Shown here in pieces: positions 3,336 through 54,504 of a stretch of 64,000 nt of DNA. Location of the stretch: NCBI RefSeq assembly GCF_003334335.1, contig NZ_QOWQ01000005.1, one strand, 5' to 3'. The position numbers and the translations under genes were made by a program. The notes below the pieces were generated by a model. It was not told where the DNA came from. It saw only the letters and a program-made list of their open reading frames with translations, and searched no databases. Within the stretch, counting starts at the first letter, position 1, and every line of letters starts with the position of its first letter. This DNA comes from Escherichia coli. GTDB lineage: Bacteria > Pseudomonadota > Gammaproteobacteria > Enterobacterales > Enterobacteriaceae.

Positions 3336-3788
3336 ATGATCTGGATAATGCTCGCCACGCTGGCGGTAGTGTTTGTGGTTGGTTTTCGGGTGCTGACATC
3401 CGGGGCCAGAAAAGCGATTCGCCGTCTCAGCGATCGGCTGAACATCGATGTCGTACCCGTGGAGTCGATGGTCGATCAAATGGGAAAGTCAGCTGGTGAC
3501 GAATTTTTACGTTATTTGCATCGTCCGGATGAGTCGCACCTGCAAAACGCCGCGCAGGTGTTGCTCATCTGGCAAATTGTCATTGTCGATGGTAGCGAAC
3601 AGAACCTGCTGCAATGGCATCGGATTTTACAAAAAGCTCGCCTCGCCGCGCCGATTACCGACGCTCAGGTCAGGCTGGCGCTAGGTTTTCTGCGCGAAAC
3701 CGAACCTGAAATGCAGGATATTAATGCTTTTCAGATGCGCTATAACGCGTTCTTTCAGCCTGCCGAGGGCGTTCACTGGTTGCATTGA
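3336..3788 (+). CDS. yicN: small membrane protein of unknown function (YicN-like)
   Basis: 150-aa ORF from the second ATG, which is preceded by aggag; single N-terminal hydrophobic segment; start uncertain (alternative 3309). Confidence 0.6.
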   Translation: MIWIMLATLAVVFVVGFRVLTSGARKAIRRLSDRLNIDVVPVESMVDQMGKSAGDEFLRYLHRPDESHLQNAAQVLLIWQIVIVDGSEQNLLQWHRILQKARLAAPITDAQVRLALGFLRETEPEMQDINAFQMRYNAFFQPAEGVHWLH

Positions 3789-51000: not shown

Positions 51001-51082
51001 CACTTCATCCTTCAAGCTGTCTCTGCGGCGGCTGCCTGCGTTCACTCCGGTCACTTACTTTTGTAAGCTCCCGGAGATTCAC
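51001..51082 (-). repeat. ERIC (IRU) repetitive element at the hldD/waaF junction
   Basis: Minus strand reads GTGAATCtCCgGGAGCTTACAaAAGTAAGTGACcGGaGTGAaCG, matching the ERIC core (ERIC1R and ERIC2 primer regions) at about 39 of 44 positions. Confidence 0.75.
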
Positions 51083-52059
51083 TTAGTTGCTGCCTTGATA
51101 CTGCTCGAATGATTTTGTGAATTTACGTTGATGTCGCGATTCAGCCAGGCCATGTATTCCGTTACGCCTTCGGCAACGGTTTTGAACGGTTTGTCATAAC
51201 CCGCCGCGCGCAGATTCGTCAGATCTGCCTGCGTGAATGCCTGATAGCGGCCTTTCAGTTTATCCGGGAACGGAATGTATTCGATCTGGCCTTTCTTGTG
51301 ATAAGCAAGCGTTGCATCGGCTACCGCCTGGAAGGATTCCGCACGACCAGTACCGAGGTTGAAGATGCCGGAAACGCCATTTTCCAGGAACCACAGGTTT
51401 ACATCTGCCACGTCGCCAACATAGACGAAGTCGCGTTTAAAGTTCTCGCTACCTTCGAACAGTTTCGGTGATTCACCGTTATTAAGCTGGGTGTTGAGAT
51501 GGAAAGCGACGCTCGCCATGCTGCCTTTATGGCCTTCACGCGGTCCATAAACGTTGAAATAACGGAAGCCAACAATCTGTGAGTTTGCTTCCGGCAGAAT
51601 TTGACGAACATATTCATCAAACAGGAATTTCGAGTAACCGTAGACGTTCAACGGTTTTTCGTACTCGCGGGATTCAATAAAGTCGGAAGTGCGACCGCCG
51701 TAAGTGGCTGCGGATGAAGCGTACAGGAACGGGATTTCACGCTCCAGGCAGTAGTGCAGCAGCTCCTTGGAGTATTGATAGTTGTTATCCATCATATACT
51801 TGCCGTCCCACTCGGTGGTGGAAGAGCACGCGCCTTCGTGGAAAATCGCTTCGACATCGCCGAACTCTTCGCCAGCCATAATCTGGATCAGGAAGTCTTC
51901 CTTATCCATATAGTCTGCGATATTCAGGTCCACCAGGTTCACAAACTTGGTGCCGTCTTTCAGGTTGTCCACCACCAGAATATCGGTGATGCCTTTGTCA
52001 TTCAGGGCTTTAACGATGTTGCTGCCGATAAAGCCCGCGCCGCCGGTAACGATGATCAT
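51079..52059 (-). CDS. hldD: ADP-L-glycero-D-manno-heptose 6-epimerase, with a variant C-terminal tail
   Basis: 326 aa; Rossmann motif [11 protein letters not shown]; after ...WLNRD the ORF continues [17 protein letters not shown] and its stop codon lies inside an ERIC repeat. Confidence 0.9.
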
Positions 52060-52272
52060 AACTGTAACCTTCGAATTGTGGAGTCAGAGACAATCTCAGA
52101 CACGAATACTTCTATCATATCACTACACGGCGCTGGCTACAGCCATTCACCGAAAGTGGTATGCCTGAGCGTGATTTATGCTTATTTTTTGACAAGTACA
52201 AATGCTTCATCTCGTATCAACCTATGGCTTTCGGTAATATGTGCTGAAATTTGCCCAGTCTGGAGAATCGCG

Positions 52273-53469
52273 ATGCGTGGAGATTTTTATCAGCAGTTAG
52301 CCAACGATCTGGAAACCGCTCGTGCGGAAGGATTGTTTAAAGAAGAGCGCATTATCACATCCGCTCAACAAGCGGATATCACTGTGGCGGATGGTAGCCA
52401 CGTCATTAACTTTTGTGCCAATAACTACCTGGGGCTGGCGAACCACCCGGAACTGATTGCGGCAGCAAAAGCGGGAATGGATTCTCATGGTTTCGGCATG
52501 GCTTCGGTGCGTTTTATTTGTGGCACTCAGGACAGCCACAAAGAGCTTGAGCAGAAGCTGGCTGCATTCCTGGGGATGGAAGATGCGATTCTCTACTCTT
52601 CCTGCTTTGATGCTAACGGTGGCCTGTTTGAAACACTGCTGGGTGCGGAAGACGCCATTATCTCCGACGCACTGAACCACGCGTCTATTATTGATGGTGT
52701 GCGTCTGTGTAAAGCTAAACGCTATCGCTATGCCAACAACGATATGCAGGAGCTTGAAGCTCGTCTGAAAGAAGCGCGTGAAGCCGGTGCGCGTCATGTG
52801 CTGATTGCCACCGATGGTGTGTTCTCGATGGACGGCGTGATTGCCAATCTGAAGGGCGTTTGCAATCTGGCAGATAAATACGATGCCCTGGTGATGGTAG
52901 ACGACTCCCACGCGGTCGGTTTTGTCGGTGAAAACGGTCGTGGTTCCCATGAATACTGCGATGTGATGGGCCGGGTCGATATTATCACCGGTACGCTTGG
53001 TAAAGCGCTGGGCGGGGCTTCTGGTGGTTATACCGCGGCGCGCAAAGAAGTGGTTGAGTGGCTACGCCAGCGTTCTCGTCCGTACCTGTTCTCCAACTCG
53101 CTGGCACCAGCGATTGTCGCCGCTTCCATCAAAGTGCTGGAGATGGTTGAAGCGGGCAGCGAGCTACGTGACCGTTTGTGGGCGAACGCGCGTCAGTTCC
53201 GTGAGCAAATGTCGGCGGCGGGCTTTACCCTGGCGGGAGCCGATCACGCCATTATTCCGGTCATGCTTGGCGATGCGGTAGTGGCGCAGAAATTTGCTCG
53301 TGAGCTGCAAAAAGAGGGGATTTACGTCACCGGTTTCTTCTATCCGGTCGTTCCGAAAGGTCAGGCGCGTATTCGTACCCAGATGTCTGCGGCGCATACC
53401 TCTGAGCAAATTACGCGCGCAGTAGAAGCATTCACGCGTATTGGTAAACAACTGGGCGTTATCGCCTGA
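52273..53469 (+). CDS. kbl: 2-amino-3-ketobutyrate CoA ligase (glycine C-acetyltransferase)
   Basis: 398 aa from MRGDFYQQ; PLP-dependent class II aminotransferase fold; operon with tdh. Confidence 0.9.
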
Positions 53470-53478
53470 GGATGTGAA

Positions 53479-54504
53479 ATGAAAGCGTTATCCAAACTGA
53501 AAGCGGAAGAAGGCATCTGGATGACCGACGTTCCTGAGCCGGAACTGGGTCATAACGATCTGCTGATTAAAATCCGTAAAACAGCCATCTGCGGGACTGA
53601 CGTTCACATCTATAACTGGGATGAGTGGTCGCAAAAAACCATCCCGGTGCCGATGGTCGTGGGCCATGAATATGTCGGTGAAGTGGTAGGTATTGGTCAG
53701 GAAGTGAAAGGCTTCAAGATTGGCGATCGCGTTTCTGGCGAAGGCCATATCACTTGCGGTCACTGTCGCAACTGTCGTGGCGGTCGTACCCATCTGTGCC
53801 GCAACACGATCGGCGTCGGCGTTAACCGCCCGGGCTGCTTCGCCGAATATCTGGTGATTCCGGCGTTCAACGCCTTCAAAATTCCCGACAATATCTCCGA
53901 CGATCTGGCTTCCATTTTTGATCCCTTCGGTAATGCCGTGCATACCGCGCTGTCGTTCGATCTGGTTGGCGAGGATGTGCTGGTCTCTGGTGCAGGTCCG
54001 ATAGGTATTATGGCTGCGGCGGTGGCGAAACACGTTGGTGCACGCAATGTGGTGATCACGGATGTTAATGAATATCGTCTCGAACTGGCGCGCAAAATGG
54101 GTATCACCCGTGCGGTCAACGTCGCTAAAGAAAACCTTAATGATGTGATGGCAGAACTGGGTATGACCGAAGGCTTTGATGTCGGTCTGGAAATGTCCGG
54201 TGCGCCGCCAGCGTTTCGTACCATGCTCGACACCATGAACCACGGCGGTCGTATTGCGATGTTGGGTATTCCACCTTCTGACATGTCGATAGACTGGACA
54301 AAAGTGATCTTTAAGGGCTTGTTCATTAAAGGCATTTACGGTCGTGAGATGTTTGAAACCTGGTACAAGATGGCGGCGCTGATTCAGTCTGGCCTCGATC
54401 TCTCGCCGATCATTACCCATCGTTTCTCTATCGATGATTTCCAGAAGGGCTTTGACGCTATGCGTTCGGGCCAGTCCGGGAAAGTTATTCTGAGCTGGGA
54501 TTAA
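53479..54504 (+). CDS. tdh: L-threonine 3-dehydrogenase
   Basis: 341-aa zinc-ADH family ORF (GHEYVGEVV, GxGxxG). Confidence 0.95.

Follow-up and report, generated by a model that had tools for sequence, protein, structure and literature searches.

In Escherichia coli K-12 MG1655, the divergent genes kbl (b3617) and rfaD/hldD (b3619) are separated by htrL (yibB, b3618, 858 bp), and the starts of kbl and hldD are 1,435 bp apart. In the strain studied here, no such gene was present between them. The DNA analyzed was a single stretch of 64 kb, hereafter referred to as the window. The question raised by this locus is which of the two arrangements is the original one: whether the strain has lost htrL or whether K-12 has acquired it.

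The hldD-kbl junction in comparison with K-12

The hldD gene, located on the minus strand, ends with its start codon at 52059, and the ATG of kbl is at 52273, which leaves 213 bp between the two divergent genes (Table 1). The earlier note had put this gap at about 210 bp and had described it as devoid of ORFs; solely chance ORFs of 28–31 codons were found inside 52060–52272. The segment 51079–53469 was 99.9% identical to E. coli M217 and other strains, in which rfaD and kbl are adjacent according to the RefSeq annotation. The K-12 gene order given in the earlier note, kbl and hldD with an htrL gene of about 0.85 kb between them, was right.

Pairwise blastn alignment with K-12 showed 99% identity from the inside of hldD to position 52107, 48 nt upstream of the hldD ATG, and identity resumed at 52170, 103 nt upstream of the kbl ATG. 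Between these break points, the window has 62 bp (52108–52169) vs. 1,284 bp in K-12, a net difference of +1,222 bp in K-12. The first 40–45 bp of the K-12-specific stretch are a diverged copy of the conserved hldD promoter block (AATCATACCATCACAT…CTTCAGCCCTTTACA in K-12 vs. TATCATATCACTACAC…CTACAGCCATTCACC in the window), and therefore the real extra DNA is located in the variable center of the spacer, at approximately 52150–52169. Thus, what the two regions have in common is the divergent pair of flanking genes, the hldD leader of 48 nt (99%), and the kbl-proximal 103 bp; they differ in the 1,284 bp of low-GC htrL DNA, within which the diverged hldD promoter block alone is kept. Altogether, about 255 bp upstream of the K-12 hldD differ from the compact alleles, and most of these are AT-rich cassette DNA.

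A tblastn search of the whole 64-kb window with the K-12 HtrL protein gave a best E-value of 4 and zero matches within the spacer. A sensitive blastn search with the K-12-specific segment of 1,284 bp yielded chance matches of at most 25 nt in the window and no remnant. Since both kinds of matches were absent there, the window encodes no member of the HtrL_YibB family (PF09612, TIGR02192, or NF008462, full-length above cut-off), the family of the gene that is present in K-12 and lacking in this strain. Two observations had been named beforehand as speaking against the claim, namely a K-12 chromosome without a gene at this place and an htrL fragment in the spacer; neither was made.

Table 1. Position of genes, candidate regulatory elements, and conserved blocks at the hldD-kbl junction of the window.
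Feature	Position	Strand	Basis or remark
ERIC/IRU-like repeat, 130 bp, between waaF and hldD	51003–51132	.	K-12 has 12 bp there
hldD (rfaD/gmhD), ADP-L-glycero-D-manno-heptose 6-epimerase	51079–52059	-	ORF and translation; rfaD annotated in M217
Divergent hldD-kbl intergenic spacer, 213 bp, "empty-site" state without htrL	52060–52272	.	ORF boundaries, K-12 alignment
Conserved stem-loop in the predicted hldD 5' leader	52083–52101	-	RNA GUCUGAGAUUGUCUCUGAC; RNAalifold consensus
Candidate extended -10 of hldD	52113–52122	-	TGATATGATA: TG, one base, TATGAT
Block CT(A/T)CAGCCATTCACC (CT(A/T)CAGCC)	52137–52151	.	-35 position of the candidate hldD promoter; family alignment
Variable center	52150–52169	.	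htrL site in K-12 and Ag1; left and right junction alignments
Block CGTGATTTATGCT(G/T)	52170–52183	+	First kbl-side block; near-invariant in 15 genera
Invariant block CATCTCGT	52208–52215	+	About -35 position relative to TAATAT; alignment
GGTAATATG, candidate kbl-tdh -10 (TAATAT, 52235–52240)	52233–52241	+	33 nt from the kbl ATG
kbl, glycine C-acetyltransferase (2-amino-3-ketobutyrate CoA ligase)	52273–53469	+	
tdh	53479–54504		Downstream of kbl; waaH next in line

Two states of the locus in E. coli and other Enterobacterales

The frequency of both arrangements was determined in 5,426 complete RefSeq E. coli genomes. The compact junction was present in 3,467 of them (64%), including 481 genomes with at least 99% identity to the window, and htrL was present in 1,958 (36%), where its location was chromosomal in every case and the median was one place per positive genome. 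The sum of the two counts, 5,425, equals the number of genomes with an hldD-kbl region, and therefore the two states appear to be mutually exclusive and exhaustive; any overlap between them would need equally many genomes with neither. As the strain itself was seen over 64 kb, it is this count argument that bears on the absence of htrL from the rest of its genome. The presence/absence polymorphism suggested by the earlier note is thus genuine in E. coli. It is also already known from the literature, with htrL/yibB listed as a variably present gene in a pan-genome comparison of UTI strains (PMC8303582). Genomes with htrL include K-12 derivatives, O157:H7, O104:H4, O103, O111, and O91, and compact ones include ST131, NRG 857C, and AVS0575. 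The spacing of 1,435 bp was identical in all three htrL-positive E. coli loci examined. No plasmid copies of htrL were detected, and carriage on plasmids was rejected, the sole match being a 4.9-Mb chromosome record mislabelled as a plasmid.

A scan with HldD across the species representatives of GTDB yielded 80 loci. A divergent hldD-kbl pair with a gap of 212–217 bp was found in E. albertii, Citrobacter (two of the four species sampled), Enterobacter (E. cloacae and E. asburiae), Superficieibacter, Pluralibacter, Pseudocitrobacter, Kosakonia, Kluyvera, Pseudescherichia, and others, and the gap was 228–280 bp in most of the sampled Erwinia, Pantoea, Pectobacterium, Yersinia, Serratia, and Photorhabdus. 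Compact spacers align block by block across Enterobacteriaceae; the junctions of other E. coli (ST131, NRG 857C, AVS0575), E. albertii, Citrobacter, and Enterobacter had the same length of 213–217 bp and the same block order. A short spacer with conserved blocks shared by related genera indicates that the K-12 state is derived. Judging from these alignments, the compact junction is ancestral for the family, and htrL in K-12 is an inserted extra. Hence, of the earlier statement that htrL was expected at this place yet absent, the absence holds, and the expectation does not, the compact form being both ancestral and that of the E. coli majority. What is expected from K-12 is a matter of reference bias, and the strain has nothing missing.

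The waa cluster of the window was read as R2-like from its waaZ, its GlcNAc-transferase gene, and its waaL of 405 aa. Of the 501 genomes with this waaL allele, 481 had it at 99% identity or higher, and the window spacer and the hldD-kbl segment gave the same count of 481 at this level. Strict linkage between htrL and the core type was rejected, as genomes with K-12-type waaL (1,033) and R3-type waaL (1,364) together exceed the 1,958 htrL genomes, and AVS0575 combines a K-12 core with the compact junction.

The two halves of the window spacer differ in their relationships. The hldD half was 92–96% identical to other compact alleles (other E. coli, E. albertii, Citrobacter, and Enterobacter), whereas the kbl half (52151–52272) showed an identity of approximately 75% with the common E. 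coli allele and approximately 80% with that of Citrobacter. A diverged patch relative to other E. coli covers 52133–52530, i.e., the kbl-side spacer and the first 250 bp or so of kbl, with an identity of 69% in 52133–52232 and 86–92% up to about 52530, vs. 96–99% elsewhere. Within the spacer, this patch was slightly closer to Citrobacter. A consensus TTGACA is located at 52190–52195 in the window and is lacking in the common E. coli allele.

At its other end, hldD of this haplotype is altered by the ERIC/IRU-like repeat (Table 1). The repeat replaces the last hldD codon, and the C-terminus continues after …NRD with 17 further residues; HldD has 326 aa in the window vs. 310 aa in K-12, with 100% amino acid identity over residues 1–309, and the long form is annotated in RefSeq. 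The Rfam model V_AS5 matched 51003–51132 over its full length with 29.6 bits and E = 7e-4, a value below the gathering score. The core of the repeat reads GTGAATCTCCGGGAGCTTACAA/AAGTAAGTGACCGGAGTGAACG. By its consensus, an ERIC element is some 127 bp long, is imperfectly palindromic, and has the core GTGAATCCCCAGGAGCTTACAT/AAGTAAGTGACTGGGGTGAGCG. Among the matches listed, every genome outside the band of at least 99% identity aligned only from query base 55, and the repeat therefore appears to be confined to this haplotype (about 481 genomes).

Candidate promoters and leader stem-loop of the compact spacer

The 213-bp spacer would act as the divergent promoter region of the hldD-waaFCL operon, which serves the heptose of the LPS inner core, and of the kbl-tdh operon, which serves threonine degradation. 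It can be divided into three putative parts: elements on the hldD side, a variable center of about 20 bp, and three blocks on the kbl side, the last of which ends in the candidate -10 hexamer TAATAT. The earlier proposal that hldD and kbl share a compact divergent control region is supported by phylogenetic footprinting, that is, by comparison only.

Ribosome-binding sites are represented by AAGG for hldD and GGAG for kbl. On the minus strand, positions 52122–52114 read TGATATGAT, a candidate extended -10 element whose hexamer matches TATAAT in five of six positions. A TATGAT or TATTAT hexamer, usually preceded by TGn, showed almost no variation in the Enterobacterales sampled, and its distance to the hldD ATG was constant. 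The hexamer is 55 nt from the hldD ATG, which places the predicted transcription start near 52105–52107. No further conserved block separates CT(A/T)CAGCC from the variable center. At the position of the kbl -10 candidate, either TAATAT or TAAGAT was found in all genera aligned. In E. coli BS-01, which has a K-12-type core, we observed a natural compact variant of 189 bp (locus L086, 2971–3159); a deletion of about 24 bp has taken out the conserved CTTCAGCC block, and with it the -35 position of the candidate hldD promoter.

These promoter and start-site assignments for both genes are deduced from the alignments, and the conserved blocks might instead be binding sites of an unknown regulator or encode a small transcript. 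A simple sigma-70 scan of the spacer called neither candidate promoter because the -35 hexamers are weak, and CGTGATTTATGCTG and CATCTCGT are conserved beyond the needs of a weak -35 region, both of which would suit such a regulator or transcript. On the other hand, TGnTATGAT and TAATAT occur at fixed and fitting distances from both start codons in dozens of genera, and the spacer has no match to an Rfam family at E ≤ 1. Regulator sites can also coexist with promoters, so this alternative is compatible with the back-to-back promoters that we prefer; as a replacement for them, we consider it unlikely.

Several other candidates were rejected. The simple promoter and terminator scan gave a single chance match, overlapping the hldD start codon. 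No significant Lrp site was present in the kbl-side blocks, and the lone 12/15 match, found elsewhere, has a chance expectation of 0.5 per spacer. Reading the CTGAAG block as a sigma-32 or sigma-E element was unconvincing by eye. No mapped promoters of hldD or kbl were found in the literature searched, to which Raina and Georgopoulos (1991) and the E. coli dRNA-seq paper do not belong. The hldD operon (htrM/rfaD) of K-12 is described as heat-induced in a passage of PMC8745692 that cites Raina and Georgopoulos (1991).

The predicted hldD leader contains a conserved stem-loop, which in the window has a core of 4 bp that can be lengthened to 7 of 8 pairs. Leaders of 48 Enterobacterales were aligned with MAFFT, blind to structure, and then folded with RNAalifold. 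The consensus was a 5-pair helix with double changes at all five pairs. Paired cells made up 96%, compared with 80% in shuffled alignments (0 of 500 reached the observed value) and 19–60% when the 3' partner was slid, and 41 compensatory cells were counted vs. 12.7 expected. Different genera have their own stems at the same position: CUGAGA/UCUCAG, CCGGG/CCCGG, CCCUGGA/UCCAGGG, GUGAAAC/GUUUCAC, and GUGGGGC/GCCCCAC. Covariation was strong across Enterobacteriaceae, Erwiniaceae, Pectobacteriaceae, and Yersiniaceae, and the per-genus folds of Photorhabdus, Xenorhabdus, and Providencia lacked the stem. Judged by this covariation, the leader stem-loop is a real feature. Hairpins of this kind close to the 5' end usually stabilize mRNA, and the hldD leader hairpin may have such a role.

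Origin of the htrL cassette and its meaning

The GC content of the K-12 spacer with the cassette was 36.6% (28–44% in 200-bp windows), and that of htrL was 37.1%, vs. 51% in hldD and 54% in kbl; outer-core genes of the waa cluster are similarly low in GC. In PMC3946193, the K-12 spacer between htrL and hldD is listed as a genomic-SELEX site of RpoD, with the mark "HNS." The only annotated gene of the cassette is htrL. The K-12 HtrL protein scored 550 bits with NF008462, 443 bits with TIGR02192, and E = 9e-131 with PF09612. In one genome, RefSeq names the product "WlaTC/HtrL family glycosyltransferase"; Pfam still labels PF09612 as of "unknown function." In E. coli, Salmonella, and Campylobacter, HtrL_YibB members are associated with LPS/LOS loci, and the outer-core locus OCL5 of Acinetobacter contains a further one (PMC4172580). 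A Providencia MAG (locus L069, 7115–7960) has an HtrL homologue with 51% amino acid identity downstream of hldD and away from kbl; therefore, the HtrL family is not confined to the spacer site.

The same cassette was found at the same site in Enterobacter sp. Ag1. Its HtrL likewise matches the HtrL_YibB family profiles and is 81% identical to that of K-12 at the amino acid level, with 73% nucleotide identity over 1.17 kb. The cassettes of K-12 and Ag1 share the diverged promoter block (CTTCAGCCCTTTACA) at the hldD-side edge as well as the TTTACA junction. In the K-12 cassette, no mobility gene was recognizable, and neither direct repeats nor a target-site duplication was found at its borders. 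These results give no support to an origin as an IS, integrase, or transposon islet. Since a diverged hldD promoter block of its own comes with the cassette, the donor was most likely another enterobacterium, whose DNA would have reached E. coli by homologous recombination in the conserved hldD and kbl flanks; later on, the cassette would have been exchanged among E. coli lineages. The data suggest a single old insertion that spread among lineages and genera in this way, and the strain with the R2-type waa haplotype would simply have kept the empty site.

K-12 also has a perfect inverted repeat of 11 nt, CGTTATTTATC (locus L003, 4645–4655 and 5771–5781), with one arm in the conserved block at the kbl-side border and the other 87 bp ahead of the htrL start. 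With about 0.25 such repeats expected by chance, it is of marginal significance. The RfaH ops element (GGCGGTAG) was absent from the K-12 cassette despite an "RfaH-regulated" label in the table of one paper. In the window, the ops core was matched exactly six times vs. about two expected by chance, at 3362, 18289, 26649, 37546, and 44366 on the plus strand and at 51321 on the minus strand.

Other cargo was found at this site as well. In Citrobacter sp. Cu233 (locus L008, 2546–3697) and C. youngae (locus L071), it holds a gene for a 383-aa GT4 glycosyltransferase co-oriented with kbl, which scored 381 bits with the NCBIfam WaaB model (LPS 1,6-galactosyltransferase) at a cut-off of 385. In a Plesiomonas MAG (locus L070), a 230-aa ORF is located between hldD and kbl and resembles, by eye, a TetR-family regulator. 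The site shares with known accessory slots whose content is exchanged through flanking homology, such as O-antigen loci and waa core types, low-GC cargo, sharp junctions in conserved flanks, the lack of integrases and IS elements, and cargo that differs by taxon at one site. It differs from them in that the O-antigen and waa slots are multi-gene clusters, whereas the hldD-kbl slot is a single-gene one and is located inside a shared promoter region.

We conclude that the strain very probably has an uninterrupted ancestral divergent promoter region, and that the low-GC htrL cassette of K-12 and other strains (36% of genomes) entered by recombination in the flanks. The opposite history, in which the ancestor of the lineage had htrL and lost it by deletion or by replacement with a compact allele, e.g., together with the acquisition of the R2-type waa cluster, is improbable. 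It draws on the independence of htrL from lineage and core type, from which it follows that the locus recombines freely in both directions, and on the kbl-proximal half-spacer, whose identity of about 75% to the common E. coli allele points to a recombinant history. A simple deletion is excluded, since it cannot regenerate the bases of 52108–52169 that differ from K-12 or are absent there, and no scar or cassette remnant is present in the window. The hldD-side half, with 93–96% identity to the compact alleles of E. albertii and Citrobacter, is as vertical descent predicts. Loss by allelic replacement in this particular lineage is possible. The nucleotide divergence of 27% between the K-12 and Ag1 cassettes is about what vertical divergence would give, and therefore an ancient polymorphism, in which the cassette was lost repeatedly through allelic replacement, is also a possible history. 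That htrL has moved elsewhere in the chromosome, or that the adjacency of hldD and kbl is an assembly artefact, is scarcely credible. The view of the strain is indeed limited to 64 kb; against this stand the 481 independent complete genomes that share the junction at 99% or more, the exact sum of the htrL and compact counts, and the one chromosomal htrL place (median) per positive genome.

With the insertion into an ancestral compact junction as the preferred history, a wider reading is plausible and still somewhat short of probable. The hldD-kbl center may be a recurrent slot of Enterobacteriaceae for LPS-modifying genes (htrL and the waaB-like GT4), moved between genera by flank recombination together with their own version of the hldD promoter. 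Since the cassettes bring this version with them, the AT-rich, reportedly H-NS-associated upstream region of the K-12 hldD may be a poor guide to hldD regulation in most E. coli. By the same reading, the hldD mRNAs of four families begin with an undescribed covarying 5' stem-loop, which may set mRNA stability or translation of the heptose pathway.

Because K-12 is the minority form with a foreign-looking extra gene, the finding is correct but ordinary, and it leaves the current understanding of LPS biology unchanged. It is a caution on reference bias: at this locus, most E. coli do not follow the gene order of K-12, and htrL is an accessory gene of about one third of the sequenced strains. What is known of hldD transcription in K-12, heat induction included, may not transfer unchanged to most clinical lineages. 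In addition, htrL can be used as an easy marker for recombination at the waa cluster edge, and a modest added value lies in the recurrent glycosyltransferase cargo site, the mosaic upstream region of the K-12 hldD, and the covarying leader hairpin.
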